Assembly: GCA_045863395.1 (NCBI GenBank) | Contig: BTVJ01000007.1 | Span: forward strand, 96,001-160,000 | Direction of reading: 5' to 3' | DNA: 64,000 nucleotides | DNA from: Myxococcales bacterium | GTDB taxonomy: Bacteria > Myxococcota_A > UBA9042 > JABWCM01 > BTVJ01 | In this document: positions 7,839 through 64,000 of the stretch, piece after piece | Numbering within the stretch: the stretch's first letter is position 1 | How the letters are laid out: every line of letters starts with the position of its first letter | Program-made: the position numbers and the translations under genes | Notes under the pieces: model-generated | What the model was told of the DNA's origin: nothing | The model's input: only the letters and a program-made list of their open reading frames with translations | The model's database searches: none

Positions 7839-8171
7839 TTATTGCCCCTCGGTTGTTTGTCGTGGCGCGGCAAGCTTGTTGTTGACCCGACTGCACATGC
7901 AGTTATCGAACGAGTCTGAGTGGCACTCATAGTCAGCGGGGCAACTGATTCTCTCGCAACATCTCGCCGCGCGGCAGTAGCAGTCGTCCCCTGAGCCGTC
8001 GCACACGGGCTTGTCTCCCGAGCACGCCTTAGCTTCACAACAGTACCTGGAGGGAGGATCATCCCCACAGCCTTGCATGCACAGGCCGAGGACCAGAAGG
8101 CCGATGAAGGTAATTGCAGCTAATACGCTCCTGCAGCTCCCTTTACTCCTACCGAATTGGATCTCGCCCAT
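7839..8171 (-). CDS. Small Cys-rich lipoprotein with two 6-Cys repeats
   Basis: GGAGA RBS, ATG 8171, lipobox-like LCMQG|C. Repeats CCEAKACSGDKPVCDGSGDDCYC and CCERISCPADYECHSDSFDNCMC. Confidence 0.6.
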   Translation of the reverse strand: MGEIQFGRSKGSCRSVLAAITFIGLLVLGLCMQGCGDDPPSRYCCEAKACSGDKPVCDGSGDDCYCRAARCCERISCPADYECHSDSFDNCMCSRVNNKLAAPRQTTEGQ

Positions 8172-8257
8172 AATAGATTCTCCCGTGGCAGAGACTCGCG
8201 TCGAAATGGACGCTACACTCGGTGGGTAGTGGCCCATCCGTAAGGTTTCTGTGCGAG

Positions 8258-9178
8258 TTACTTCAAACTCCATCCCCACCAAGGTCCAGACGAGACCGTC
8301 ACTCCCACGGACAAGTGGGACGCGGCATCACCCGATTGGAGTGTAGAAGCGGGGATGTGAATGAGCATGACTGTCGGCCCAACTCGAAAGTCTACAGTAT
8401 CGGTCCTCCCGACGTAGCTGATTGCCGCCGTTGCCAGGAACAGCCCACCTCGTGGGTCGAAGCTCTCCAGCTTATTGCCAGATGTGCTGGTTCTTGAGTC
8501 GACGACCGGGTCAGGGGCCCCTCCCAGAGTAGTGGAGATGCCCAGGCCGTGTGACATGGCGTCTGGCGAGCCCCAAGAAATGTCGCCAGAGAAGCCAACG
8601 CGGAGCGTCGCTCCGGAAATATTGGTAGTGACACCAGGCATGGCGTTGGAAGCGCTGGAGAGAAAGTAACTGGATCCCACGATGCCGCCGACGGAGTAGC
8701 TCACATCCGCCCGTCGATATCTGATGCCAATGAGCGCATTGAGCCCGAAGTCCAAGCTCGGGCCCAAATCTATCTGCCCAAATGGGCCCGTTGTGGCTTC
8801 GAGAAGCCCGGGTTTCGCCACAACGGCACCGAAGTCGAAGGTAAGGCAGGGCAATACGAAGAAGACGTCCTCGTCTTGAGCATTGGTGAAAGCAGGCAGA
8901 CCCGGAGTCTCTAGACTGAGTGGGTCCAACACTCCGTCGTCGGGTCCCCCCTTAGTTCCCTGCTCCGGGTACTTGTTGCCCGGATCGACCGCGGACGCGT
9001 TCGGGGCTGCTGCATCGACGTCGGACTCTGCAGGTTCATGCAAGGCGGAACCGTCGACCGTAGCTGGCGCCACCGTTCGCGTAATGCTCCATACACTGTA
9101 ACCTGTATGTGCCAATGCTCCAGCGCCCACAAGCACTGGCGCTGCTCCGGCTGCCACCCTCAAGATCCACATGGTCAT
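8258..9178 (-). CDS. Hypothetical exported protein with a possible C-terminal outer-membrane beta-barrel
   Basis: 306-aa ORF with ATGA overlap to the upstream gene, a hydrophobic N-terminus and alternating beta-strand-like segments in the C-terminal half. Confidence 0.55.
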   Translation of the reverse strand: MTMWILRVAAGAAPVLVGAGALAHTGYSVWSITRTVAPATVDGSALHEPAESDVDAAAPNASAVDPGNKYPEQGTKGGPDDGVLDPLSLETPGLPAFTNAQDEDVFFVLPCLTFDFGAVVAKPGLLEATTGPFGQIDLGPSLDFGLNALIGIRYRRADVSYSVGGIVGSSYFLSSASNAMPGVTTNISGATLRVGFSGDISWGSPDAMSHGLGISTTLGGAPDPVVDSRTSTSGNKLESFDPRGGLFLATAAISYVGRTDTVDFRVGPTVMLIHIPASTLQSGDAASHLSVGVTVSSGPWWGWSLK

Positions 9179-10449
9179 TGGTCCCTCCAGCGCCAGTTCT
9201 GATCGTCAAACCCTCGCTCCAGGAGAACGTCGAGAGTCGCTCCATCGATAATCTGGAGTACGTCTCGTTCGCCGCTCTTTGCGTTCCAGATGAAGTCCGG
9301 CACTCCGTCGCGGTTATAGTCCGGTGCCACAGCGATCTGGCGCCTCGTTCCATCAAACTCGCTCTCCTGAGTCTGGAGCGATGAAAGAGTCTTGCCAGAT
9401 ATCACATCTACGCGGGAGCCCGTGCAACCGTTGTAGCAGGTCGATGTGCGAGCAAGGTCATTTACGCCGTCTCCATTGACGTCATCAAGCACGCTGATTG
9501 TCTCGGTGATACTCCCGGTCTCAGTGCTTGGAGGCAGCAGAGCATCGCCCATTCTGAGTATTTCACACGTAGTCGGGTCGAGGAGCACGAGGGAAACATC
9601 GATGCTCTCGGCTTTGTCCACTGAGCCGACAACTACCCGCGGTGATTGGGTCATGTCCGAATTTGCGACAGGAACAACTGTCGCCAGTGAAAACCCGAAG
9701 TGTGTCATGTGACTAGGTGAGCAGGACGAAACTTTGGAACCACTCGCTCCTGAATGAATCGAGAGCGAGAAGGAGTCTGTGTCTCTGTTGTAGGTGGTGG
9801 CAACTGCCTCGCTCAACTGGTCTCCGTCAATGTCAAGTAAGAGTCCAGTTAGGATGTGTGCATACTCGCTGTTCTTCTGGAGGGCGATTTCCCACAAAAC
9901 TTCTCCATTGGCGCCCGAGACCGCAGCCCAACGCTGTCTATCAGGCGATCTCAGTCCGAAGTCCTCAAATCCGTCTCCGGAAATGTCCCCAAGACTATGT
10001 GCAAGGCTGGACGCGAACTGGACAGCCCCGACTTCGGTGAACCATTCCGCGTCAATTATGTGACAAACTCCTTTCCATTCGCCTCCCCGAGCGCGTTCAC
10101 CAGGTGCACAGGCCACCAAGCGACCGGGACCCGTTGGGGTTGCCAGCGAGATTATTGAGCTTCCTAGGAATGCCCCCCCGTTTGCTCCGTAGTGGCATGA
10201 ACGTGTTACGCCGGTTTGGCCGGAAATGACGCACAGTCCACCGGCATTCACTCGTGTTCTTCTATCTCTGGAGAAACTGTGTAGCGGAATAGCCGCGATG
10301 ATGTCTTCCACCCCGTCACCATCAATGTCTGGAACGACGGCGAAGCTGTGTCCGAAGCCCGCTTCAGATGGCGGCTTAGGGTCGCATGCGAGGAAGAACA
10401 GCGCCAGCAGTCCAAGTGCGGGCGAGCGGATGACAGTCGATGCACTCAT
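9175..10449 (-). CDS. FG-GAP / integrin-alpha-like repeat lipoprotein
   Basis: LLALFFLA|C lipobox. FGHSFAVVPDIDGDGVEDII, LGDISGDGFED, DIDGDQLSE, DVNGDGVND, DYNRDGVPD. Start placed at MSASTVIR. Confidence 0.8.
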   Translation of the reverse strand: MSASTVIRSPALGLLALFFLACDPKPPSEAGFGHSFAVVPDIDGDGVEDIIAAIPLHSFSRDRRTRVNAGGLCVISGQTGVTRSCHYGANGGAFLGSSIISLATPTGPGRLVACAPGERARGGEWKGVCHIIDAEWFTEVGAVQFASSLAHSLGDISGDGFEDFGLRSPDRQRWAAVSGANGEVLWEIALQKNSEYAHILTGLLLDIDGDQLSEAVATTYNRDTDSFSLSIHSGASGSKVSSCSPSHMTHFGFSLATVVPVANSDMTQSPRVVVGSVDKAESIDVSLVLLDPTTCEILRMGDALLPPSTETGSITETISVLDDVNGDGVNDLARTSTCYNGCTGSRVDVISGKTLSSLQTQESEFDGTRRQIAVAPDYNRDGVPDFIWNAKSGERDVLQIIDGATLDVLLERGFDDQNWRWRDQ

Positions 10450-10834
10450 TCCTAAACTCCTGCCTGCAATCACACTGTTGATCTTGGCCGAAAGGCCCTT
10501 CACAAGTCTCGTGCCCTTCGGGGTTGCGCAGCCAATTGTAACAGGCCCAAAGACGCAGCTTGCGCAACTTCGCGGACGTACAGTATGGTACGGCATGGGC
10601 AAACGCATTGGTACTGGGCTGCCCAATGCCTTCATCATGCCGTGCATTCCAGATCAACCACAGCAGTCAATTTAGCATCATCGAGAGGGTTCGAGCAACG
10701 AGGTTGTCCTAGCCGCGTGACACCTGGGCATTCGTGCAGTCACCTGATCCGTCGGAATCGGCAACGGTGAAATCGATAGGTGAATAGTCGTCCGGGCGTT
10801 TTTTGGGAGTTCAGAGACAGGAGGCCGTAGGGAG

Positions 10835-12556
10835 TCAGTGAAGCATGAATGCCTCGATGTGAAACCCCCCAGAATCGTCCGAAACGTCAGAATCCAGGTT
10901 CGGGGTGAAGGAGATGTGGAGGGGGGAGGGGCAGTCCTTCGCTCGGAAGAGGGCGCGGTGGGCGGCGGGGTCGTTGGCCAGCGCTTCGGTCTTGGCGCAG
11001 GCGAAGGTGACGGGGGCTACCGTGCCGCCGGCGACCTTCTCGATGTGGCTCCAGGCGTTGAGGGGGCCGGTTTCGATGCCGGCGCCGATGGCCATGAGGC
11101 CTCGGACCTCGACGAGGACGTCGGCGACCGGGGTGTCGAGGGGGATTAGCAGGTCCGGGACCTCAGTGAGCCACGGGATCTTGGCTACCTTTCCGCGGCG
11201 GAGGACGCCCCCTCCGAGGTACTTGCCCACCGGGTGGCCCAGGCGGAAACCGGGGGCGTCGCTGAGCAGCAGTGGGTGGTTCGCCGGCGCTGGGTAGATG
11301 GTCACCTTGAGGCTCCCCTTGTTGTCATCCCACGCCGCCGGGTCGTTGCCTAGGCCGTCGTGGATGGAGAGGCGCAGGATGTGGCTGGTGGGGATTGCTG
11401 CGAAGAGGTACGTGCTGGCAAAGAGGCACTCGCGGACCAGGGTCGGGGGGAGGCCGTCCACCTGGAAGGAGAAGTTGGCGTCGACTCGATCAAAGTCGGG
11501 GAAGTAGTCGCAGCCTACGCACACGGGCTCCGACGGGTTCGCCTGGTAGGGCTTGTGCCAGCGGCGCAGGCCGTCCTGGCAGCCGTCGACGGAGAACATG
11601 AAGACGCCTCGCACCAGGAGGAAGTACGTGGCGCCGGCCTTCACGCCCGGGACCAGCGTTCCTTGCTGGGAGGTGGCGTCCACTTCTACGGTGAGGCTTC
11701 CGGGCGGTGGGGTCTCCAGACAGCCGACGGGTGTTGGGGGCGTCACGCAGGGGCCGAAGGGAGCGAGGCCGACGAATCCGGTGCCAGGCAGCGTCGATCC
11801 TGGTAGCGGAGGGACCGCAGGCTTCTCCGGGGTTGGAGGGTTGGGGGCTGGCTGCTGTGCGGACTTGGCCGCGGGTGTGTTCTTCTGGGCAGGATCCGGT
11901 GTGGGCGGCGCATCGGGCGTGGGCGCGTCCTTCGCGACCGGGGAGGACACGTCCCCGGTGGCCGGCTCGGGCGCCACGGCGGGGCTCTTGTTGTCCGCCG
12001 CCTGTGGGGGTGCCGCGCCGGACCCGCTGCTCTTCGAAGCGACCGGCAGTCTGGCGCCCCAGAGTGCCGGGGATGAGGGCAAGAGGGCGACGAGCTGATC
12101 ATCCGGTGCATTTGCGATCCCGAGGTCCGGCGGGTGCTCCGGGATCTCCAGGCCGGCGTAGATGGCGCCGCCCGGCGCAACGGTCGGGACCTGGACGTCC
12201 GCAGCGAACGCATGCGCGGTCACTCCGGGGGCTGCCCTGGCGGTGGGCTGCTCCCGCGGTGATGTGCTGCCCGGCTCGCCGACATGGGCAGGTGCTCGCG
12301 CTGGTCCCTTCGGCGTGCTCCCCGCCGACGTGCCGGCCTGCGGCTCCGCCGGATCTTCGCCTTGCGGAACCTTCTCGGGCCCATGGACCCAAGGCAGCCG
12401 CAGACCGCGCAGTGGATCGCTCTTGTCTCCCCGCTCCCGCCGGCCCCGGGCTCCGTTGTCATCTCCCTCTCCGCCGCTCCCGGTCCACCACACTGCCGCC
12501 ACGCACCCGAGAAGAGCGAGCACCAGGAGCGCGCCGCCGGCTCGCCGCGTGGTCAC
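10835..12556 (-). CDS. Membrane-anchored protein with a Pro/Ala-rich stalk and two C-terminal beta-sandwich (possibly LecA/PA-IL-like) domains
   Basis: GTG 12556 overlaps the upstream stop (GTGA). N-terminal TM, long PA-rich linker, and two domains ending in WDDNKGSLKVTIY and SDDSGGFHIEAF. Confidence 0.65.
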   Translation of the reverse strand: MTTRRAGGALLVLALLGCVAAVWWTGSGGEGDDNGARGRRERGDKSDPLRGLRLPWVHGPEKVPQGEDPAEPQAGTSAGSTPKGPARAPAHVGEPGSTSPREQPTARAAPGVTAHAFAADVQVPTVAPGGAIYAGLEIPEHPPDLGIANAPDDQLVALLPSSPALWGARLPVASKSSGSGAAPPQAADNKSPAVAPEPATGDVSSPVAKDAPTPDAPPTPDPAQKNTPAAKSAQQPAPNPPTPEKPAVPPLPGSTLPGTGFVGLAPFGPCVTPPTPVGCLETPPPGSLTVEVDATSQQGTLVPGVKAGATYFLLVRGVFMFSVDGCQDGLRRWHKPYQANPSEPVCVGCDYFPDFDRVDANFSFQVDGLPPTLVRECLFASTYLFAAIPTSHILRLSIHDGLGNDPAAWDDNKGSLKVTIYPAPANHPLLLSDAPGFRLGHPVGKYLGGGVLRRGKVAKIPWLTEVPDLLIPLDTPVADVLVEVRGLMAIGAGIETGPLNAWSHIEKVAGGTVAPVTFACAKTEALANDPAAHRALFRAKDCPSPLHISFTPNLDSDVSDDSGGFHIEAFMLH

Positions 12557-13353
12557 TTCGTGTCCTCTCTGGAAGCGAGCGCCACTGCGTCGAGGGCATC
12601 GAGCGAGCGTGGGCCTAGCCTGCCCCCGTTGATGCCGCCCCACGTGGCATCCGGCTGGCGCGCCACGACCTCGGTGGGTCCCTCCCCTTGCTTCACTATA
12701 GTAATGATGTACTCCCCGTCTTCGAGCGAGGTGTCGCCGTCGCCAACGTAGATGCGAAGGTAGCCCCCGTCGTCGACCAGGCGGAGCGTCGTGGTCCTGC
12801 CGGGGTCGCCTCGGAGCGCGACGCGCACGGACTCCTCGCGCCGACCGCCAGCGGCGGCTAGAGGGTAGGCGCGGGAGCCTTGCCCGGCCCGCTGCGCCCT
12901 GCGGCAGCGCACGCACGCAACGAGCCCCTCTACGTGCGCTTGGATCCAGGCCCCGAGGGTCGCGTCCGGCGCCTTCGCCAGCGCTTCACCTGAAGGGTGG
13001 AGCACCAGCAGGATCTGCGTCAGGGTGTCGATGCGTCGCCGACGGAACGGGGCCCCCTGCCCACCGCCAGGGAACCGTGTGAAGTAGGCGGCCAACGCCG
13101 CAGGCTCTGCCCCGGTGGACGCGAGCGCCCCGAGCAGCTCGTCGCCCGGGCGCCCCTCCTCGGCCAGGATGAGCCAGGCGGCCTCCCCCGCCGGCCAACA
13201 CCCGGCCGCACGCAGCCCCTCGCCGCACGCGGACTCGGCCGCCCGCAGCAGCACATCGGAGTTGGACGCATCGGGCAAGGACAGGTGCAGCGCGCGGAGT
13301 GCCGCGAGGACGCGCCGTTCTTGCACCAACAGGGGGTCTCGGTTGCTCAGCAT
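12553..13353 (-). CDS. Putative zinc-finger anti-sigma-like protein with an internal YPLAAA motif and a C-terminal domain duplicated at 14841
   Basis: GAGGGA RBS, ATG 13353. Contains HVEGLVACVRC (H..CxxC), then SRAYPLAAAGG, then a ~75-aa beta-rich domain. The CDS is well supported; the function is inferred. Confidence 0.55.
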   Translation of the reverse strand: MLSNRDPLLVQERRVLAALRALHLSLPDASNSDVLLRAAESACGEGLRAAGCWPAGEAAWLILAEEGRPGDELLGALASTGAEPAALAAYFTRFPGGGQGAPFRRRRIDTLTQILLVLHPSGEALAKAPDATLGAWIQAHVEGLVACVRCRRAQRAGQGSRAYPLAAAGGRREESVRVALRGDPGRTTTLRLVDDGGYLRIYVGDGDTSLEDGEYIITIVKQGEGPTEVVARQPDATWGGINGGRLGPRSLDALDAVALASREDTK

Positions 13354-13363
13354 CGCGCGTCCC

Positions 13364-14701
13364 TCAGTTGCCCTTGCATCGCTGTGGTGCCTGACTGCGT
13401 TGGCTGCCGCGCCCCGATGTCGTCCCTGTTGGCGCGGACGTGCTGGTCGGAGTGGTCGCCTTGTCGAAACGGTCACGCACCTCCCGAAGTATGTCCAGCA
13501 GCTCGTCGTGCATGCAAAAGAGATCGCAGATCGTGCTCGACTTGCGTCGGAGCCACGCGTCCAGGCAATGCGGCTCCAGATCATCCGGGTCGGGGCGCTC
13601 CCTCGTTGCGGCCTCCCTCACGGAGGCTTCGCTCCACCACGTGCGGTGACGGGCGCGCTTGAGGCGCTGGCGACCCGCGTCGGTATCATTCCTTGCGCCC
13701 GGAAGGTAGTGGTCGTCGCGCACAGAACCATCCAGGTCCAGGGTGCCCTGGAGGAACATCACCACCTCGTGAAGGATCACGTCCTCGACCTCGTGCCAGG
13801 CGCTCGGGGCCTGCTGCTGCTGCGGTGCCGACGTGGAGGATGACTTCGATTCGTCGGTCGCTCCTTGTGTCTTCGGGCCATTGCGGTGCTTCAACCAGCT
13901 CTGGGCGCCCGCGAGGACGGACAGCTTGAAGTCCAGCAGGAGACGCACCCAGCCTCCCTCCGGAGGGGAGAGCAGCTCGTAGGTCTGCTGGGTACGCGCG
14001 ACCGCCGTCGTGAGCCGCTCGACGTGTCGCCTCTCCTCGCCCCTGAAGCTCGTGTGGTCCGCGGCGAGCTGCATGGCGACCGAGCGCCATGGTGGCTCCG
14101 CAACGCAGGTCGCCAGCGCGATGTGCTCCGCGACCTTCGGACCGGGCCACAAGACGTCCTTGCCGAACCCCACGGACACGGCGCTCGTCGCGGAGGCCAT
14201 CGCGTCCAGCGGGCCGGGCATCCGCCGCCGGGCCATCTCGAGCATCTGGAACTCCGTCCCCGACGCACCCGCGGCCTCGCCGTGGAGCAGCGCCGGGAGC
14301 TCATTGACCAGGACCGCGGGGTAGTAGGACTTGACCCGGGGAGGAGGCTCGCAGTCGCAGATCCTGGCGACGCCCAGGACGATTGCCGCCTGGACCGCCA
14401 GCGGGTACTCGGTGCACAGCCGTTCGAGCGCGCATCTCGCGCACGCACCACAGGTACAGGGCGCCTCGCCGGGTCTCTGCGGGTGAATCCATTCCGTGTA
14501 GCCGTCCGCGCAGTCCTCGCAGACGGCCACTATCTCAGCCAGGGCGGCGAGCAGCAGGCAGCGTTCCTCATTCTCAGACGGGAGCTCGAGCTGGGCGGAG
14601 ATGGTCCCTGCCAGCTCCTCGGTGTTGCCCGTGGCGGCGTCCTCATAAAGAACTTGCAGCAGTTGTATCCACTTCTGAACACTTTCGAGCCCGTATGGCA
14701 T
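13364..14701 (-). CDS. Cys-rich hypothetical protein, possibly a highly divergent ECF-type sigma factor
   Basis: Start MPYGLESV. ALERLCTEYPLAVQAAIV resembles sigma region 2.1 and DAGRQRLKRARHR resembles region 4.2. Cys clusters CEDC and CTCGACARC. Ends 10 bp before the anti-sigma-like gene. Confidence 0.45.
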   Translation of the reverse strand: MPYGLESVQKWIQLLQVLYEDAATGNTEELAGTISAQLELPSENEERCLLLAALAEIVAVCEDCADGYTEWIHPQRPGEAPCTCGACARCALERLCTEYPLAVQAAIVLGVARICDCEPPPRVKSYYPAVLVNELPALLHGEAAGASGTEFQMLEMARRRMPGPLDAMASATSAVSVGFGKDVLWPGPKVAEHIALATCVAEPPWRSVAMQLAADHTSFRGEERRHVERLTTAVARTQQTYELLSPPEGGWVRLLLDFKLSVLAGAQSWLKHRNGPKTQGATDESKSSSTSAPQQQQAPSAWHEVEDVILHEVVMFLQGTLDLDGSVRDDHYLPGARNDTDAGRQRLKRARHRTWWSEASVREAATRERPDPDDLEPHCLDAWLRRKSSTICDLFCMHDELLDILREVRDRFDKATTPTSTSAPTGTTSGRGSQRSQAPQRCKGN

Positions 14702-14840
14702 CGCCCGCACCTTCCATTCCCCGTGTAGTCGAGGTATATCCCATGTTGCTCGACCTGGGAAGTCCGCATTCAGGGTGTCACGCATGCACCCCGCTCTACG
14801 GCAGCGTGTTCTGATTCCCGCGGGGAAGCGGAAGGCCAAC

Positions 14841-15104
14841 ATGGATCGCTGGATTACGCTCCGAACATTCGACGACCACGGGTGGTTGCGGTTCGTCCTG
14901 GACGCGCCGGGTGCGCGCGACGCCGAGTCGCAGTACCGCGTGACGTTTCGGCTGAACGATGGGACGCACATGGAGGCCGTCTTCCACCTACCTCGCGACG
15001 TCTGGTGGGGTGTCAATGCCGGCGCCCTCGGGAGGCACGACGTCGATGACATCGAGGCGGTGGTCATCGAGCGCGATGCCCAACCTGAGGGCGAGGCCGA
15101 CTGA
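14841..15104 (+). CDS. 87-aa stand-alone paralog of the C-terminal domain of 12553..13353
   Basis: MDRWITLRTFDDHGWLRF...WWGVNAGALG. TGATG coupling to the next gene. 23/74 ungapped identities by hand alignment. Confidence 0.75.
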   Translation: MDRWITLRTFDDHGWLRFVLDAPGARDAESQYRVTFRLNDGTHMEAVFHLPRDVWWGVNAGALGRHDVDDIEAVVIERDAQPEGEAD

Positions 15105-17428
15105 TGCGCATCCCGTGGTGGCTCGGCGTCCCCTTCGCCCGGCGTAACGCCCTGGGGCTCTGTCTGGGGATTCCGCTCGCCGTGTTCCTGGTCATCCTCG
15201 TGGCGCTCCCCATCCCGCGCATCGAGTGGGAGCCTCTCCCCGTGCCCGACGAGGGAAACGGCTGCCGCGCTCCCGTCCTCGACACGCTGACGGTGCCCTC
15301 GATCTGCCGTCCGATCACCAACACGCCGGTGTCCCCGCTCTACTCGTGCAGCCCGATCGGGTTCAGCGACGCGGATTGGCGGATTGAGGTCCGACTGCGG
15401 GGGCTGACCGACGGGTGTGAGTACGCCTTCGAGTGGGTCTCGCTGCCGTTTCGCCGGCTTGACCCGGGGCGGGTGCGCCCGGCCCTCGGGTTCTCTCTCG
15501 ACCCGCAGTACGCTCCCCCCGTCTGTGACGTGCCGGCGGACGGGGTGACCCGGTGCGCGACCGATGCGGCGCCGTGGAAGGCGTACTACCTCGTCGCGCG
15601 ATCAGTGTCCGAGGGCGGGCAACAGTCCGGTCCTGCCTACGCGGGCGGGTTCGAGGTGTATCAGACCGACGGACCCAACATCCGAGGCCGAATGGCCGCC
15701 CGGGGACTTGGCGTCGTGCTCGGCGGCGCGGGTCTCCTGCTGCCGCTTGCCCTGTGGTGGAGGCGGCTCAACGCCGGTGTACCCCGTCTCCCGCGCAGCG
15801 CGGTGGTCGCGACCATGACCGCCTGGGGTGGCGCCGTCACGGCCCTCGCTCTCGCGCTGCTGCCGTCAGACCTGGGGGGGCCGGACCTCCTCAGGCTCGA
15901 CCGCCTGGTATGGCAGCCGTTGTACGGCGCGGTAGCGGGCGCAGCGCTCGGGGTCGGCGCCGATGACCTCCGGCGCCGGTACAGCCTTGCGAGCACCGCG
16001 GGGCGTCTGTTCATCTTGGGGACCTTCGTCGTCCTCATCGTCGGGGGGGCGCTGCTGATGCATCACTCCACGAGTGCTGGCAGCGGCCCGACGCTCTCCT
16101 TCACGTATCTGAAGTACAAGTCTCGCTACTACATCTACCTTCTGCTCTCACTCACCCTCCCATTGCTCGCCGTCGGTCAGGTCCCCTGGCGTGGTCCGGA
16201 GTGGAGCCTGACGGGGACACTGAACCCCACGCGCTCCGTGGCTGCGCGGACTCTCCTGGTTGCGTCGCTCTGTGGGGTAGCGACCAACGCCGTCGCGCTC
16301 GCCGTGGGCTCCGTCGTCGAGGTCCCCAACATCGGGACGTCCATGTCCGGCTTCTTCAAGCCTGCGTCTGCCTGGGGCATCCTGGCGTGTCTCCTCCCGG
16401 CGCTCGGCACCCTGGCCGTCGCGGTCAACCTGGGTGAAGGCCGCCCCCCGTGGGTCCAGTCATTGGTCGCCTTGGCGGATGAGCTGCTCCGGTCCCAGGC
16501 CGTGGACACCACGCGCCGGGCTGCGAAGGGGCGGGAGCTGCTCGGGTCAATGATTGCTGCCGACCCGGCGACCCTGAGCCGGCACGCACGCCAGCTCCTG
16601 CCGGTGGCGGTGTGCCTCCCCGAGGTGATCGGCGCCGTGGCTACCTCTGCGCACGACGTGGAGCAGCTTGCGGAGCAGCTCAGCCTCCCTCCGTCCGTGG
16701 CCTCTGAGAAGTTGCGGGTGGTTCAGGACATCCTCGCCGCTGCCCGGCAGGCATGGACTCGTGAGACCACGCGCGGCTTGGTGCCCATGGTCGGGCGCGA
16801 CGGGACGCTCCACGCAGGGGTCGTGCACAGCCATCTGGGGCCGAACCTGGCGCCCGAGCCGGAGCCCCGGCTCGAGGTGTGGTGCAATGGGCGACTGCAC
16901 CTCGCGGCGCACCCCGTCGCGACGAGCGTGCAGGCGGTCTTCAACGGCGTCCGGGATGCCTGGTTCCCCCGCGACGACGTAGCCGTCCTCAGGTGGGCGG
17001 TGGTGCAGGTCCACCTCGATTATCCTGACGAGCCCATGCTTGGGAGCATGGGCCGCGGTGTCAGCGGCCAGAGCTACGAGCTCGCCGTGGCCCTGAGTCT
17101 GCTGGAGCTGATCCTCGCGCAACCGCCGGTCGTGCCTTGGGCCGCAACCGGGCTGATCGATCACGGGAGCAGAGTCGTCACGGGCGTGGACCACGCCGCC
17201 ACCAAAGCGGGGATCACCACCGATCGCGTCCTGCTGCTCCCACCTCAACACGTCGCAGAGGTCTCGCCGCACGTCGACCACGTGCTGGAGGTCTCCACGC
17301 GCATCGACGCCGACCGGGTCCGCGCAAGGCTCGCATCCGGTGTCGTCGCCGGGCAGCGGGTGGCCGTGGCCGTGGAGTCCGTCTACCTTGCGGCGGCCGT
17401 CCTGTACGGGGAGCGCCTGGACGCGTGA
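15104..17428 (+). CDS. Multi-pass membrane protein with a C-terminal Lon-type (S16-like) Ser-Lys protease domain
   Basis: About 8 hydrophobic helices and a 6-Cys loop after TM1. The C-terminal VQVHL...SGQSYELAVALSLL...WAATGLIDHGSRVVTGVDHAATKA...LLLP matches the Lon protease-domain pattern. No Walker A motif seen. Confidence 0.75.
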   Translation: MRIPWWLGVPFARRNALGLCLGIPLAVFLVILVALPIPRIEWEPLPVPDEGNGCRAPVLDTLTVPSICRPITNTPVSPLYSCSPIGFSDADWRIEVRLRGLTDGCEYAFEWVSLPFRRLDPGRVRPALGFSLDPQYAPPVCDVPADGVTRCATDAAPWKAYYLVARSVSEGGQQSGPAYAGGFEVYQTDGPNIRGRMAARGLGVVLGGAGLLLPLALWWRRLNAGVPRLPRSAVVATMTAWGGAVTALALALLPSDLGGPDLLRLDRLVWQPLYGAVAGAALGVGADDLRRRYSLASTAGRLFILGTFVVLIVGGALLMHHSTSAGSGPTLSFTYLKYKSRYYIYLLLSLTLPLLAVGQVPWRGPEWSLTGTLNPTRSVAARTLLVASLCGVATNAVALAVGSVVEVPNIGTSMSGFFKPASAWGILACLLPALGTLAVAVNLGEGRPPWVQSLVALADELLRSQAVDTTRRAAKGRELLGSMIAADPATLSRHARQLLPVAVCLPEVIGAVATSAHDVEQLAEQLSLPPSVASEKLRVVQDILAAARQAWTRETTRGLVPMVGRDGTLHAGVVHSHLGPNLAPEPEPRLEVWCNGRLHLAAHPVATSVQAVFNGVRDAWFPRDDVAVLRWAVVQVHLDYPDEPMLGSMGRGVSGQSYELAVALSLLELILAQPPVVPWAATGLIDHGSRVVTGVDHAATKAGITTDRVLLLPPQHVAEVSPHVDHVLEVSTRIDADRVRARLASGVVAGQRVAVAVESVYLAAAVLYGERLDA

Positions 17429-54576: not shown

Positions 54577-54760
54577 CACTCACCTCACCGCGGGGGGCCG
54601 TAGGGGGAGTCAGCATGCCACCTCCTGGCGTCCGCTCCAACCCTGGCGCCGAACGACTCCGTAAATTCTGCCCGTCGCGGGATTCCGTCTACCCCTCTTC
54701 GTGGGCTGCAAGTACACTGCCCGGACGACCTGTGGCTCAAGAGGCTCCCCGGAGGCCCCC

Positions 54761-57700
54761 ATGAGAGACCTGCGAGCGTTCATCGTGCTGGCCATGATCC
54801 TGACAGCGTGCGGCGAGAGCGTCGTGAGCAGTGGCGGCGACGGTGGCAGCACCGACGTCGACACGCCGCCCCTCGGCACGGACGTGGACGTCGCCCCCCC
54901 TGACGGGGTCGTGGTTCCAGACACGGGGAGCGAGCCTCAGTGCTCGGTCGACGGGGACTGCTCGGCCTTGGCCAAGCCCTGCTCCACGGTGAAGTGCGAC
55001 GCCGGCAAGTGCACCTGGATCCCCCAGGACGACGGGGCTGCGTGCGACGACGGCGACCCGTGCACCCAGGGCGACAAGTGCTCTGCCGGGGCCTGTGCAG
55101 GCATCGACACCTGCGGCTGCGCCGGCGACGCCGACTGCGCGGACCAGGAGGACGGCGATCTCTGCAATGGCACGCTCGTCTGCAAGGACAAGAAGTGCGT
55201 GGTGGACGCCGCGACGGTGATCGCCTGCGACACGAGCGCCGACGAGGCCTGCGCAAAGGCCGCCTGCGACCCGGCGACGGGCTCCTGCGCCATCATGGCG
55301 GTGCCGGAGGGGTCGGCTTGTGACGACGGCGATGGCTGCACGGTCGGGGAGACCTGCAAGAGCGGGGTCTGTTCCGGCGCGTCGCTGTCCTGCGACGACG
55401 GCAGCCCGTGCACCGACGACGCGTGCGAGGGCGGCACCTGCACGAACACCCCCAACACGGCAGCCTGCGACGACGGCAACCCCTGCACGGTCGGCGATGC
55501 GTGCAAGGACGGCCTGTGCCAGCCCGGCGAGGGGAGCTGCCCCTGCGAGACGGAGGCGGACTGCGCTGCGCAAGAGGACGAGGACCTGTGCAACGGAACG
55601 CTGACCTGCGCCGACGGCCAGTGCGTTCCGCTGCCTGGCTCCGCCGTGGTGTGCGACACGTCGGCGGACGGGGCCTGCGCGACGACCGCGTGCGTTCCGT
55701 CGACCGGGGAGTGCGAGACCACCGCCGCCGAGGACGGTACGCCGTGCGACGACGGGACGGCGTGCAGCGGGGCGGACGCCTGCCTGGAGGGCGCCTGCCT
55801 CGGCTCACCCATAAGCTGCGACGACGGCAACCCGTGCACCCAGGAAGGGTGTGACCCGGTGTCCGGATGTACCCACGAGGCGATTCCGGGCTCCTGCGAC
55901 GACGGGGACGCGTGCACGACGGGGGACACGTGCGTGGGCGGCACCTGCGCCGGATCCGGCGCCGGCCAGTGTGACGACGGCAACCCCTGCACCACCGACG
56001 GCTGCGACCCCGCCGGGGGCTGCGTCAACGTCCCCAACGCGGTGCCCTGCGACGACGGCAGCGCGTGCACCACGGGCGACGCATGCAGCGACGGGGCCTG
56101 CGTGGGCGGCGCGCCGCTGGCGTGCGACGACGGCAACCCCTGCACCAGCGACACGTGCTCGGCGGCGACGGGCTGCGTCCATGACCCGATCACGGCACCC
56201 TGCAACGACGGCAACCCCTGCACGAGCGGCGACCAGTGCGAGGGCGGCGTCTGCAAGGGCGTCGGGGGCCTGGACTGCGACGACGGCAACCCCTGCACGG
56301 ACGACGGCTGCACCGCGGAGAGCGGCTGCACCCACACCCCCAACGCGGCGCCTTGCGACGACGGGAACGCCTGCACCACGGGCGACGTGTGTACGGGCGG
56401 CGAGTGTGCGCCCGGACCGTCGACGTGCTCGTGCCAGACCGACGGAGACTGCAAGCCCTTCGACGACGGCAACGCCTGCAACGGCGTGCTGTTCTGTGAT
56501 CAGAGCTCCTTCCCCTTCACGTGCAAGGTGAGCCCGTCGAGCGTCGTGACGTGCTCGACGGCGGGCGATACGACCTGCCAGAAGAACACGTGCGACCCGG
56601 TGAGCGGTCAGTGCTCCCCGAAGCCCTTGAACGACGGCAAGCCCTGCGATGACGGCAACGCCTGCACGGCGGCAGACCTGTGCGGGAGCGGTGTCTGCAA
56701 GGGCAGCGTGCCCACGAGCTGCGACGACAAGAACCCGTGCACCGACGACTCCTGCGTGCCGGCGACCGGGTGCGTGCACAAGTCGAACGCCTCGCCCTGT
56801 GATGACGGGAGCCTGTGCACGACGAACGACCTCTGCCAGCAGGGGCTCTGCGTTGGTGGTCCGCCGCCTGGCTGCAATGACGGCAACCCCTGCACGGACG
56901 ACGGCTGCAACCCCAAGTCCGGCTGCTTCAACACGCCGAACGTGGCGCCGTGCAGCGACGGGAACTCGTGCACGACGGGGGACGCCTGCAAGGGCGGCCT
57001 GTGCGCCGGCGGAACGGGCGTGGCGTGCAGCGACGCCAACCCCTGCACCGACGACGCGTGCGACCCGAAGAGCGGCTGCGTGCACACCCCGAACGGGGCC
57101 GGCTGCGACGACGGCAACGCCTGCACGACCGACGACGTGTGCGCCAACGGGACGTGCAAGGGCCTGAAGGCCGTGCTGTGCAACGACGGCAACCCGTGCA
57201 CCGACGACGCGTGCAACCCGGCGCTCGGGTGCGTGTTCCAGAACAACGCCGCGCCGTGCAACGACGGCAGCGTGTGCACCACGGACGACACCTGCGCCGG
57301 CGGGTCGTGCGTCGGCGGCGCGCCGCTGTCCTGCGGCGACGGCAACCCCTGCACCGACGACACCTGCGACCCGAAGACGGGCTGCAAGAACACCCCGAGC
57401 GGCAAGCCCTGCGACGACGGCAACGCGTGCACGTCAGGCGACGCCTGCGGTGGTGGCTCCTGCAAGCCGGGCTCGCCGGTGGGGTGCAACGACGGCAACC
57501 CGTGCACCGACGATGGCTGCGACCCGCAGACCGGCTGCGTCCACACGATGAACACGGCCGCCTGCGACGACGGGGACGCCTGCACCACGGGCGACGTCTG
57601 CGGCGGCGGCGTGTGCAAGGGGACGGGCGGGACCCAGTGCAACGACGGCAACCCGTGCACCGACGACTCCTGCAAGGAGGGCGTGGGCTGCGTCTACGTC

Positions 57701-60700
57701 GCCAACCAGGCCCCCTGCGACGACGGCAACGCCTGCACCACCGGGGACGCCTGCGCGGCCCAGAAGTGCGTGGGCGGCCCGGCGACCCAGTGCGGGGACG
57801 GAAACCCGTGCACGGACGACTCCTGCGACCCGGCGACGGGCTGCGTGAACCTGGCCAACGAGAAGCCGTGTGACGACAACAACGCCTGCACCGTCGGCGA
57901 CCAGTGCGGCGCCAAGCAGTGCAAGCCCGGCGTCCCGCTGCCGTGCGACGACGGCAACCCCTGCACGACCGACGGGTGCCTGCCTGCGACAGGCTGCACC
58001 GCGGTCCCGAACACGGCGCCGTGCTCGGACGGCAACCCGTGCACCCAGAACGACGTGTGTGCGGGCGGGCTGTGCCAGAGCGGGACCCAGATCTGCGCCT
58101 GCGAGGAGGACGCCGACTGCGCCGCGCAGGACGACGGCGACCCCTGCACGGGCACGCTGGTGTGCAACGTGGGCGTCCTGCCACACACCTGCGTCGTGGA
58201 TCCGGCCACCGTGCCGGTGTGCGACCCCTCGGACGACACGCCGTGCCTGGTCAGCAAGTGTCAGCCCGCGAGCGGGTCGTGCGCTCCCGTGCCCGTCAAC
58301 GCGGGCGGACCTTGCGACGACGGCAGCGCCTGCACGGCGGGCGACAAGTGCTCGAGCGGGCTGTGCGTCGGCGGAGCCACCATCAACTGCAACGACGGCA
58401 ACCCCTGCACCGACGACTCCTGCGACCCTCTGGCCGGCTGCCTGAGCACCCCGTCGAGCCAGCCGTGCAACGACGGGAACCCGTGCACGACGGGCGACAC
58501 GTGCTCGGCCGGGACCTGCAAGGGCACCGGAGCGCTCCCGTGCGACGATGGCAACCCCTGCACGACGGACGCCTGCGACCCGGCGACCGGGTGCACGTTC
58601 ACCAACAACACCGTCCTCTGCGACGACGGCAACGCCTGTACGTCCGGGGACGTGTGCGGCGCCGGGGTCTGCAAGGGCGCGACGGCGGTGACCTGCAACG
58701 ACGGCAACCCGTGTACGGATGACACCTGCGACCCGGCGACGGGCTGCAAGGCCACCAACAACACGGTGCCCTGCAACGACGGCAACGCGTGCACGACGGC
58801 GGATACCTGCAAGGACGGCGTCTGCACGGGCGGCGCGCCGCCGGCCTGCGGCGACGGCAACCCATGCACGGACGACGGGTGTGATCCCGCGACGGGCTGC
58901 GTCCATACGAACAACACGGCGCCCTGCAATGACGGCAACGCGTGCAGCACCGGCGACACCTGCGCTGGCGGCTCCTGCGTGGCGACGGGCACGCTCCCGT
59001 GCAACGACGCCAACCCGTGCACCAACGACTCCTGCATCCCGGCGAGCGGCTGCTCGTTCGTGAACAACACGAACCCGTGCAACGACGGCAACGCCTGCAC
59101 CACGTCGGACGCCTGCGACGGCGGCCAGTGCAAGGGCACGGGCTCGCTGAGCTGCGCCGACAGCAACCCGTGCACCGACGACTTCTGTGACCCGGCGACG
59201 GGCTGCGTGGTCAAGCCCAACACCAACCCATGCAACGACGGCAACGCCTGCACCCAGAACGACGCGTGCTCGGGCGGCGTGTGCCTGGGCGGCTCGGCGG
59301 TGGTCTGCAATGACGGAAACCCCTGCACGACGGAGAGCTGCGTCCCTGCCAGCGGCTGCGTCTACACCAACAACACGAGCCCCTGCGACGACGGCAACGC
59401 CTGCACGCCGAGCGACAAGTGCACGAACGGCGTGTGTGTGGGGTCGGGGACGCTCGGCTGCAACGACGGCAACCCGTGCACGACCGATAGCTGCGACCCG
59501 GCGACAGGCTGCACCTACACCAACAACACGAGCCCGTGCGACGACGGCAACGCCTGCACGTCCGGCGACGTGTGCGGCGGTGGCGTCTGCAAGCCCGGGA
59601 CGGGGCTCCAGTGCAACGACGGCAACCCCTGCACGGACGACGGGTGCTCCCCGGGCTCCGGGTGCACGTTCACGCCCAACACGGCGCCCTGCAACGACGG
59701 CAACGCCTGCACGTCCGGCGACGTGTGCGCGGCAGGCCAGTGCAAGGCGGGCACCGCGGTGACGTGCAACGACAGCAACCCGTGCACCAGCGACTCCTGC
59801 AACCCGGCGAGCGGGTGCGTCTACACGAACAACACGGCGGCCTGCTCCGACGGCAACGCCTGCACGACGAACGACACGTGCGCGGGCGGTCAGTGTGTCG
59901 GCGGGGCGGCCCCCAACTGCAACGACGGCAACGTCTGCACGGCGGACGCCTGCAACCCGGCCACCGGCTGCACGCACACGCCGACGGCCGGACCGTGCAA
60001 CGACGGCAACGCGTGTACGCAGAACGACACCTGCACGGGGGGGGTCTGCACGGGCGGCGCGGCGGTCAACTGCGACGACGCCAACCCGTGCACCAACGAC
60101 TCCTGCAACCCGGCGACCGGATGCACCTACACCAACGCGAGTGGGGCGTGCAGCGACGGCAACGCCTGCACGACCGGCGATGCCTGCACCGGCGGGCTGT
60201 GCAAGCCGACGGGGACTTTGACCTGCAACGACAACAACGTGTGCACCAGCGACTCCTGCAACCCGGCCAGCGGCTGCGTGTTCACGAACGTCTCCGGGCC
60301 CTGCGACGACGGCAACGCGTGCAGCACGGGCGACTCGTGCCAGGCGGGGCAGTGCAAGGGCACGGGCGGCTTGAACTGCGACGACGGCAACCCCTGTACG
60401 GCGGACTCCTGCAACGCGCAGGGAGGCTGTGTCCACACCAACATCACGGGCGGCTGCAACGACGGGAACGCCTGCACGACCAACGACATCTGCCAGAACG
60501 GGGTCTGCACGGGCGGGCCGGCGCTGTCCTGCAACGATGGCAACGTGTGTACCAACGACTCGTGCAATCCCGCGAGCGGCTGCGTCTACACGAACAACAC
60601 CGCGAGCTGCAACGACGGCAACGCCTGCACCACGGGGGACACGTGCTCCGGCGGACAGTGCGTCGGTGGGTCGCCTCCCGTGTGCAACGACAACAACGTC

Positions 60701-62740: not shown

Positions 62741-62848
62741 GGTCCTCGCCGGGGGCGGGCGACGCCCCGCCTTTGCGCCCGTCGTCCGTCCCTCCTATAC
62801 TCCGCCGTCGGGCAGCGCCGCCCCTTGCTCTGGCTGGAGGACATCGCC

Positions 62849-63502
62849 GTGAGGATCGCCCCCTGTTTGTTGGTAGCCGTCGCCATGGCGGCTTGCTCGA
62901 AGACACCTCAGGCCCCCGCCCAGGGGAGCGCCAAGAGCTCCGTGAGCGCTACCGCGGGGCTGGAGCCCATCCCCGGCGTGACGACGCTCGACTCGGCGCC
63001 GGTCGCAGCGCCTGCCGCTGCGTCACCCTCTGCGCACGCCAACGTGCCGCCGGCTGCGCTGACGCCGACCGGCGACTGGGGCCAGGTGCTCAGCGAGAAG
63101 ATCGAGGGTGGCACTCTGGAGACGACGGTCCAGTCTCCGTGGGGGCCCGTCACGATCACCGGGCCCTCAGAGGGTGCCGGTGGGGCTGTGACCCGCTACT
63201 GGCAAGCGTGGGCGAAGATCGACTTCGGGGCGATCTACCCGATGACCACCGGGGTCATGCGCGAGCGCCTGGCTGAAATGGACACGGAGGCCGGGCGTGC
63301 GGACTATCGGTCGACCATCTCGGATCGCTACAAAGACAACGCGCCCATCTGGTTCAAGGTGGAGGGGGTCTCGGAGCAGGGAGACCGCGCCACGGCCCTG
63401 GTCCGCAACGAGACCAAGACCGGTGAGATCCAGACCCGGGAGTGCACCTTGGTGAAGACGCCCGGGGGCTGGCGCTTCGAGCAGATCCGCGCGCAGCGCT
63501 GA
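62849..63502 (+). CDS. Lipoprotein with a possible NTF2-like C-terminal domain
   Basis: GGAGG RBS, GTG start, VAMAA|C; C-terminal GDRATALV...LVKTPGGWRF. Confidence 0.65.
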   Translation: MRIAPCLLVAVAMAACSKTPQAPAQGSAKSSVSATAGLEPIPGVTTLDSAPVAAPAAASPSAHANVPPAALTPTGDWGQVLSEKIEGGTLETTVQSPWGPVTITGPSEGAGGAVTRYWQAWAKIDFGAIYPMTTGVMRERLAEMDTEAGRADYRSTISDRYKDNAPIWFKVEGVSEQGDRATALVRNETKTGEIQTRECTLVKTPGGWRFEQIRAQR

Positions 63503-63520
63503 GAGGCGGCCGGGGCCTCG

Positions 63521-63847
63521 TCAGCTCCGGTCCCCTCCGTTGCCACCGTCTCCCTGACCCTCTTCTCGTCCCAGCGCCGCGTCCAGGTCCGCCAGGGCGT
63601 CCTCGTCGCTTCGCTCCACGGTGTCGCCTTCACGGATCTTCCGAGCCGCCTCGTCCCCGTCCTTCGCCTGGACGGTGCCGAGGATCTGCACGAACCCGGC
63701 GCGCGGCTTGCGCTTCTCTTGCGGCTTCGCCTCCACGTCGCCGCTCTCGCAGTTGGCGCACTCGACGGCGCCGACCTCGTCGGGGTCACGGCGCCAGATC
63801 TCGAAGTCGGCGCCGCAGGCGTTGCAGTGATAGGGAAGGATCGGCAT
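63521..63847 (-). CDS. FmdB-like zinc-ribbon protein
   Basis: MPILPYHCNACGADFE...ECANCES; AGGAG RBS. Confidence 0.75.
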   Translation of the reverse strand: MPILPYHCNACGADFEIWRRDPDEVGAVECANCESGDVEAKPQEKRKPRAGFVQILGTVQAKDGDEAARKIREGDTVERSDEDALADLDAALGREEGQGDGGNGGDRS

Positions 63848-63860
63848 CGTCAGCTCCTGG

Positions 63861-64000
63861 TCAGGGCTTCTCCCACAAGAACTCTTCGGCGCCCATGCGG
63901 TGGGTGACCCAACGCGAGAGCACGAACAGCGCGTCACTCAGCCGGTTGATGTACGGGATCACGGGCTCTCCGAGGGGCTCCTCACGCGAGAGCGCCACGA
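63861..64000 (-). CDS. 3' end of a PduO-type cob(I)alamin adenosyltransferase (partial)
   Basis: Hand translation ...PVIPYINRLSDALFVLSRWV...EEFLWEKP* contains the YxNRLSDxLF signature. Confidence 0.8.
   Translation of the reverse strand, partial: VALSREEPLGEPVIPYINRLSDALFVLSRWVTHRMGAEEFLWEKP

Follow-up and report, generated by a model that had tools for sequence, protein, structure and literature searches.

What does a bacterial membrane protein with a Lon-type protease domain at its C-terminus sense, what does it cut, and what would the cut set free? The question is raised by a cassette of five genes (Table 1) in a 64,000-nucleotide stretch of DNA from a Myxococcales bacterium (contig BTVJ01000007.1, positions 96,001 to 160,000; the whole stretch is called the window below). 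The cassette encodes a polytopic receptor-protease, a soluble protein with a putative zinc site and the tetrapeptide LAAA (the zinc protein), an all-helical partner, a stalked surface protein and a free beta-domain. The reading that we favour, with a probability of roughly 55%, is a one-component proteolytic switch composed of a transmembrane Lon receptor, its soluble LAAA-bearing substrate and a helical regulator.

The cassette is real, conserved and rare. An earlier note on this DNA, made from its letters alone, had named co-occurrence in other genomes as a check on its proposal, and the genes do co-occur: receptor, zinc protein and helical partner are found together in five of 107 genomes of the class, at six loci and in four families. 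With the receptor alone as the query in 61 related genomes, strong matches were obtained in G001 (two), G019 and G058, and their neighbourhoods held homologues of the helical partner, the zinc protein and mostly the surface protein. G079 was found by the profile of the helical partner alone, and encodes a zinc protein, a surface protein and two receptor paralogues within 7.2 kb. The same five genomes among the 107 scanned carry a homologue of the helical partner, the beta-domain of the zinc protein and a strong receptor match; three further genomes of the class (G028, G080 and G099) gave weak matches to the Lon region only. Phylum-wide searches of 401 genomes returned four, or five when one weak match in G413 is included, and no further solid member, and metagenome scans found no relatives. 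Named relatives are Polyangium, Enhygromyxa salina and a 'Deltaproteobacteria bacterium', so that the hosts are probably Myxococcota-like. At all six loci the gene of the helical partner lies directly upstream of the zinc-protein gene; the receptor and surface-protein genes shift position and strand from one locus to the next, so that gene order is reshuffled, and identities among the homologues range from 23 to 34%. The homologous loci were read as lists of open reading frames (ORFs), the cassette of G058 is spread over three contigs and its layout is an inferred one, and the five genomes are kin, most of them used in the profiles, so the counts show linkage and not frequency.

The candidate substrate is the zinc protein. 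Its model (predicted local distance difference test, pLDDT, 79.8; eight sequences) comprises a helical domain, a linker and a beta-sandwich, and residues 162–169 are the only segment with a pLDDT below 50. No transmembrane (TM) segment was detected by hydropathy. The earlier note had described an H..CxxC protein with YPLAAA. Both motifs are present, and H119, H140, C147 and C150 are invariant among the homologues; the spacing, however, is H-x6-C-x2-C in all six homologues, with the invariant His119 lying 21 residues before His140, whereas the zinc anti-sigma domain ZASD is defined by H-x3-C-x2-C (PMC4598750). The protein has a putative fourth ligand upstream (His119), but not the ZASD spacing. 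YPLAAA occupies residues 163–168, and LAAA follows the zinc motif and precedes the beta-domain in four of the five homologues with a complete linker (G058, cut by a contig end, is excluded), against a background of about 0.5% per 20-residue window in the long ORFs of this genome. In Candidatus Cloacimonas, the site at which the CalpL protease cleaves CalpT lies within LAAA, and the new LAA terminus serves as a C-degron (10.1101/2024.05.08.593097). Residues 168–263 of the zinc protein superimpose on CalpT residues 195–270, the CalpT10 fragment (8b0u_C), with Z 5.4 and a root mean square deviation of 3.7 over 74 of 76 residues, at rank 8 of 48,161 chains; unrelated beta-sandwiches score up to Z 6.0, less than 1 Z higher, and this likeness, which begins at the predicted cut, is no more than a hint. 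The C-terminal domain is also homologous to the free beta-domain of the cassette, as had been noticed before, with 31% identity over 74 residues and E 6e-10 for the pair.

The receptor is the candidate protease. Cysteines 54, 68, 82, 105, 141 and 151 lie in the loop behind its first helix. Seven hydrophobic segments exceed the cut-off before residue 445, and an eighth, near residue 270, passes it in both G001 homologues. The loops behind helices 2, 4 and 6 are rich in arginine, and the one behind helix 5 also contains three basic residues. With eight helices and the N-terminus inside, this positive-inside pattern makes the cysteine loop external and the C-terminal region internal, so that the Lon domain is probably cytoplasmic. 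A profile built from the five intact C-terminal domains retrieved only Lon protease domains among its PDB matches (six of six at E ≤10), including the proteolytic domain of archaeal LonB and CalpL (7qda/8b0r), with E values of 0.006–0.017 and the serine and lysine in register. Alignment with hhalign to six Lon-family domains of this genome gave E 0.0012, and 20 column shuffles and the reversed profile, run as controls, gave 0.24 or worse. The stretch from the membrane to the Lon domain, only about 105 residues, is too short for an AAA+ module. The sequence thus agrees with the earlier description of a protein with about eight TM helices, a six-cysteine extracytoplasmic loop and an ATP-independent Ser-Lys Lon domain. 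The motif G-x-S-[YF]-[EQ]-L with a downstream lysine is present in six of the nine receptor copies, and each genome keeps at least one such copy; a copy with the serine, the lysine and an A[TS]G motif is likewise kept in all five genomes, which argues for selection on catalysis. Elsewhere on the same contig, some 80 kb from the cassette, a 921-residue frame contains a strong Lon_C match (G000:C7:27295-27900).

The distribution of receptor paralogues is the main addition to what had been noted before. The juxtamembrane helical domain and the catalytic motif occur together in only three of the nine copies, namely that of the window and both copies of G001. G019, G058 and G079 each have two receptor paralogues, and in all three genomes one paralogue retains 86–100 residues of the helical domain and lacks G-x-S-[YF]-[EQ]-L, while the other has the motif, with a lysine 45–49 residues on, and 0–14 residues of the helical domain. 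Copies without the motif are found only beside an active copy. CalpT bound to one subunit of CalpL is cut by the adjacent subunit (10.1101/2024.05.08.593097). The simplest reading of the split pairs is that they would form a hetero-oligomer in which docking and catalysis reside on different chains.

From these features a sequence of events can be proposed. The cysteine-rich outer loop and the TM bundle would respond to a signal from the envelope or from outside the cell, possibly with the help of the stalked surface protein. Receptor oligomers would dock the zinc protein by its C-terminal beta-domain, for which the juxtamembrane helical domain is the probable site, and the Lon Ser-Lys site of a neighbouring subunit would cut the disordered LAAA linker; both steps are modelled on CalpL and CalpT. 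The cut would leave a zinc domain that ends in ...LAA, a ClpXP-type degron, and removal of this fragment would free the helical partner, which most likely binds DNA or RNA polymerase and regulates the genes of surface proteins. In this lineage only, the free beta-domain, co-translated with the receptor, would occupy the docking site.

Several findings weigh against this switch. The Lon matches of the receptor profile are modest; single receptor sequences miss the Pfam model Lon_C, and single-sequence searches missed the Lon domain. The juxtamembrane helical domain does not resemble CalpL in sequence, so that its docking role is a guess, and in the PDB its profile found only generic helical matches. 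The CalpT10 match is weak, a Foldseek search with the zinc-protein model returned nothing at E 0.001 or better, and the zinc-protein homologue on contig C62 of G001 has LRAS in place of LAAA. The kinship of the five genomes means that the counts lack independence; G019 and G058 belong to one genus, and in G019 the dead receptor paralogue (L012:9076-11510, plus strand) is read in two frames and is either a pseudogene, maybe decaying, or an assembly error. The helical partner, for its part, finds no sigma model in Pfam (0 of 43 family members) or in NCBIfam (0 of 45), and hhalign of its family against 18 sigma factors of this genome gave E 0.10–0.13, which is not significant. Finally, two distant Polyangium homologues of the helical partner have no cassette gene nearby, one with a run of N after the gene and the other at a contig end; the family may thus also work alone. 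One Polyangium homologue (L033:1974-5452) lies between a gene that reads as an FHA-type regulator and, past the N run, a cluster resembling tail-sheath genes.

The identity of the helical partner, which the earlier note had called sigma-like, bears directly on the output of the switch, and the label is not confirmed. Sigma factors usually consist of two flexibly linked domains, and the AlphaFold2 model of the partner (pLDDT 82.6; predicted template modelling score, pTM, 0.84) is one compact all-helical body. Elsewhere in this genome, the model of sigma region 2 detects 20 genes above its threshold. In a window scan against 13 sigma factors of the extracytoplasmic function (ECF) type, the best windows aligned residues 332–354 with the recognition helix of region 4.2 (E 0.015, uncorrected) and residues 251–271 with region 2.1 (E 0.036); after correction for about 26 windows neither is significant, and the alignments of subgroups are in partial agreement. 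Of 43 sequences, 33 share a basic helix of the RKRLxRxR type, at about residues 344–353, which suits binding to nucleic acid or polymerase; the model has no helix at residues 321–340 ahead of it, so that a complete helix-turn-helix is not formed. Searches with the model, mainly with residues 121–255, returned no sigma factor, and Foldseek found nothing in the PDB at E 0.001 or better. The best matches of a wide structure search were generic four-helix bundles (Z 6.3), a second look gave a best Z of 5.5, and a viral library gave none. The ESM Atlas had no usable result for either the helical partner or the zinc protein (Atlas models with pTM 0.24 and 0.29). A profile of the family run against 1.84 billion representatives retrieved 42 proteins, mostly of 320–445 residues, a number that includes three G001 and G019 members from which the profile was built. 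That the partner is a true but very divergent sigma factor is a possibility we hold only tentatively; otherwise it is a candidate regulator of new fold.

The fourth conserved gene has to be accommodated as well. The surface protein consists of an N-terminal helix, a Pro/Ala stalk and a conserved cysteine-containing C-terminal region of about 300 residues; it has no Pfam or PDB match, and is a candidate co-sensor or output of the system. In an unlikely alternative, the true substrate would be this protein or the receptor itself, and the helical partner and the zinc protein would be a zinc- or redox-controlled pair that governs cassette expression only. The surface protein is linked as tightly as the others: every one of the five genomes has a homologue, as do five of the six loci. 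Some soluble zinc anti-sigmas, RsrA for one, can sense a signal directly and without proteolysis (PMC4598750), and the LRAS homologue shows that one zinc protein does without LAAA. However, by the predicted topology the Lon domain is cytoplasmic and thereby kept apart from the surface domain, most homologues retain both the LAAA linker and a distinct beta-domain, and the 3' end of the zinc-protein gene abuts a catalytically intact receptor gene in G019, G079 and G058 (in the last across a contig start). At the C76 locus of G001, three other secreted-looking genes, with products of 928, 194 and 366 residues, stand between the zinc protein and the receptor (L009:11734-16428, minus strand); they follow the zinc-protein gene in place of the stalked protein and are possible alternative outputs. 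Two of their products have short D-x-x-G-D-G repeats, which we take to be reminiscent of dockerin.

Equally improbable, in our estimate, is that the same switch serves defence or growth arrest, with a toxic helical partner or zinc-protein fragment set free by a receptor that senses attack by phages or predators. Defence had been offered earlier as a possible role. The patchy spread (5 of 107 genomes) would suit it, as would the G+C content at third codon positions (GC3) of the cassette, 0.82–0.86 compared with about 0.9 or more in many genes of the window, the low-GC insert alongside, and a helical partner without an assigned fold. By contrast, none of the five cassette proteins has a significant match in PADLOC, PHROG, NCBIfam or Pfam. 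Thirty-two other ORFs of the window, chosen by codon bias from 71 candidates, gave Pfam matches to surface-repeat, CotH, cytochrome/redox and metabolic families, with no defence gene among them; no cas family was found in these 32 or in eight window ORFs likewise scanned against Pfam. The conserved company of a surface protein also speaks against this role. No SAVED match was obtained in the receptor or in six homologues, and the only SAVED gene of the genome lies on another contig (G000:C24:59087-61344), where it has an HNH-like N-terminus and stands beside a nucleotidyltransferase-like gene; it is probably part of a cyclic-oligonucleotide-based antiphage signalling system (CBASS) that is unrelated to the cassette. 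A link between this gene and the cassette was considered and rejected. The scans agree with the earlier statement that the window has no cas or SAVED genes. The defence role found no backing other than the patchy spread.

That the Lon-like domain is non-catalytic, and that the receptor sequesters the zinc protein via the beta-domain in competition with the free copy, is very unlikely. The loss of the motif in three of nine copies and a distance from serine to lysine that varies from 44 to 49 residues would suit it, but every genome retains an intact copy and the dead ones stand only beside it.

Returning to the proteolytic switch, the free beta-domain is not a general part of it, as it is present in this genome only, one of the five with a cassette. 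The protein lacks the linker and the first strand of the beta-domain, and is closer to the zinc protein of G019 (41% identity) than to its own neighbour (31%). Its gene sits before the active receptor, at the place taken by the 3' end of the zinc-protein gene in G019, G079 and G058, and probably derives from an older zinc-protein gene of which the 3' end was kept. A GGAAGG sequence lies 5 nt upstream, and the GC3 of 0.82 is like that of the neighbouring genes. A relative of 87 residues that is 85% identical starts at the same methionine; relatives of the helical partner and the zinc protein are 72% and 80% identical, and the three would come from one organism. Two other origins were discarded: a recent duplication of the neighbouring gene, because the G019 homologue is closer, and a plainly decaying frame, because of the 85% identical relative. 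After cleavage, CalpT10 remains on CalpL (10.1101/2024.05.08.593097), so that a free copy without a linker would act as a product mimic. We give roughly even odds that the 87-residue protein is such an inhibitor at the docking site, where it would set the threshold of the switch; it may otherwise be an adaptor or a neutral remnant.

The arrangement of the cassette (Table 1) is that of two divergent, tightly coupled gene groups around a short gap, as first described, with all five ORFs in place. The stop codon of the free beta-domain gene overlaps the start of the receptor gene (TGATG), 10 bp separate the genes of the helical partner and the zinc protein, and the latter overlaps the surface-protein gene. 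The genome has one copy of the cassette. Neither a sigma70-type site nor a promoter consensus was found in the divergent gap, and a comparison of nine upstream regions gave no informative shared motif. An inverted repeat was read by eye in the gap (14711-14749; the 6 bp GTCGAG, a 15-bp spacer and CTCGAC), which may be an operator or due to chance; no counterpart was found in the other loci.

Table 1. Genes of the cassette and regions of its two central proteins (genes by window position; protein regions by residue)
Feature	Position	Strand or numbering	Basis
Receptor-protease (B), 774 aa	15104..17428	+	ORF, at the position given by the earlier note
Free beta-domain protein (A), 87 aa	14841..15104	+	ORF
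All-helical partner (C), 445 aa	13364..14701	-	ORF
Zinc protein, candidate substrate (D), 266 aa	12553..13353	-	ORF
Stalked surface protein (E), 573 aa	10835..12556	-	ORF
Divergent intergenic region, 139 bp	14702..14840	.	sequence
N-terminal helix, then six-Cys extracytoplasmic loop	~36-195 (loop)	receptor residues	hydropathy, Cys positions
Seven more TM helices	to ~445	receptor residues	hydropathy
Juxtamembrane helical domain	~450-550	receptor residues	
AAA-less Lon-type domain, Ser657/Lys701	~553-774	receptor residues	profile matches
Helical domain with H119/H140/C147/C150	7-157	zinc-protein residues	model, invariant residues
Disordered YPLAAA linker	162-169	zinc-protein residues	model
Beta-sandwich	173-261	zinc-protein residues	model

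Directly downstream of the surface protein and on the same strand, three secreted-looking genes (7839-10647, minus strand) encode proteins of 147 residues (cysteine-rich), 306 residues and 490 residues (FG-GAP repeat); their GC is low, at about 57%, with a GC3 of 0.58–0.64, and they are either a foreign insert or possible output genes. On the other side of the cassette, large surface proteins abound in the region 17504-54579. Their repeats are of the MopE-type, TSP3, FG-GAP and CARDB kinds, and a trypsin-MopE fusion and two CotH kinases are encoded there as well. The remainder (54940-63937) consists mostly of minus-strand ORFs, nine of which were scanned without a Pfam match. A very long open frame on the opposite strand (54701-62740) and a strong AT skew are also found in this region.

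The textbook routes from the envelope to transcription are phosphorylation and the intramembrane cleavage of a membrane-bound anti-sigma. If the proposed switch is correct, a receptor whose cytoplasmic Lon domain attacks a soluble inhibitor would constitute another route, and would suggest an origin for the CRISPR CalpL-CalpT module. In a bolder and doubtful extension, the cassette would define a new class of oligomeric receptor-proteases with separable docking and catalytic subunits, which would cut a soluble CalpT-like inhibitor at LAAA, free a transcription factor of new fold or a remodelled sigma and have a dedicated free-domain inhibitor, and the CRISPR CalpL-CalpT pair would be one offshoot of a wider, non-CRISPR family for envelope signalling. 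The split pairs of active and dead receptors offer a natural test of the in-trans mechanism of CalpL. With about 40 representatives, a confident model and no match in the structure searches, the family of the helical partner is a candidate for a new regulator fold. Synthetic biology would, moreover, gain a usable part in a ligand-gated, ATP-independent protease with a four-residue site. A search of the open full-text literature, which leaves subscription journals largely outside, found no paper on a polytopic receptor that has its Lon domain in the cytoplasm and is paired with a soluble anti-sigma; the gene-neighbourhood tables of the CalpL papers may contain related cases.

The closest known system is the CalpL-CalpT-CalpS cascade. 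Both have an AAA-less Lon Ser-Lys domain, a two-domain protein of similar size with an unstructured LAAA linker and a third, tightly linked partner gene, and docking and cutting in trans may be common to both. The beta-domain of the zinc protein is weakly like CalpT10/DUF2080, scoring as generic beta-sandwiches do. The sensors differ, since that of the cassette is an eight-TM protein with an outer cysteine-rich loop instead of a SAVED domain for cyclic tetra-adenylate (cA4), and no cas genes occur among the scanned window ORFs. MazF has a beta-rich fold. A MazF domain is assigned to the CalpT24N fragment (10.1101/2024.05.08.593097), whereas the N-terminal part of the zinc protein is a helical zinc domain and not MazF-like. 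The partner of the cassette is helical, has 350–445 residues and lacks recognisable ECF domains. Further differences are the surface protein conserved in the cassette, the pairs of active and dead receptors in three genomes and, in this lineage, the free beta-domain. Because the SAVED domain, the CRISPR link and the MazF-like domain all fail, the cassette is not a member of the CalpL-CalpT-CalpS family.

In its overall plan the receptor resembles BlaR1 and MecR1, in which one polytopic chain combines a sensor outside with a protease inside and activation removes a cytoplasmic regulator. Their protease, however, is an M56 zinc metalloprotease and not Lon, the regulator is a BlaI-type repressor, and neither a Lon domain nor an LAAA substrate is involved. 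DdcP/YlbL of Bacillus, an S16 Lon domain anchored in the membrane and accompanied by a PDZ domain, shares the membrane-tethered Lon protease domain, which in DdcP is extracellular (PMC8767453). The proposed chain of an envelope signal, proteolysis and Clp degradation of the released inhibitor corresponds to that of the anti-sigmas RseA (DegS/RseP-RseA-sigmaE) and RsiW (PrsW/RasP-RsiW-sigmaW). These are membrane proteins cut by other proteases, the released inhibitor being removed by Clp (PMC4598750, PMC8767453), whereas the candidate inhibitor of the cassette is soluble, and sensor and protease are joined in one chain with a putative cytoplasmic S16 domain.

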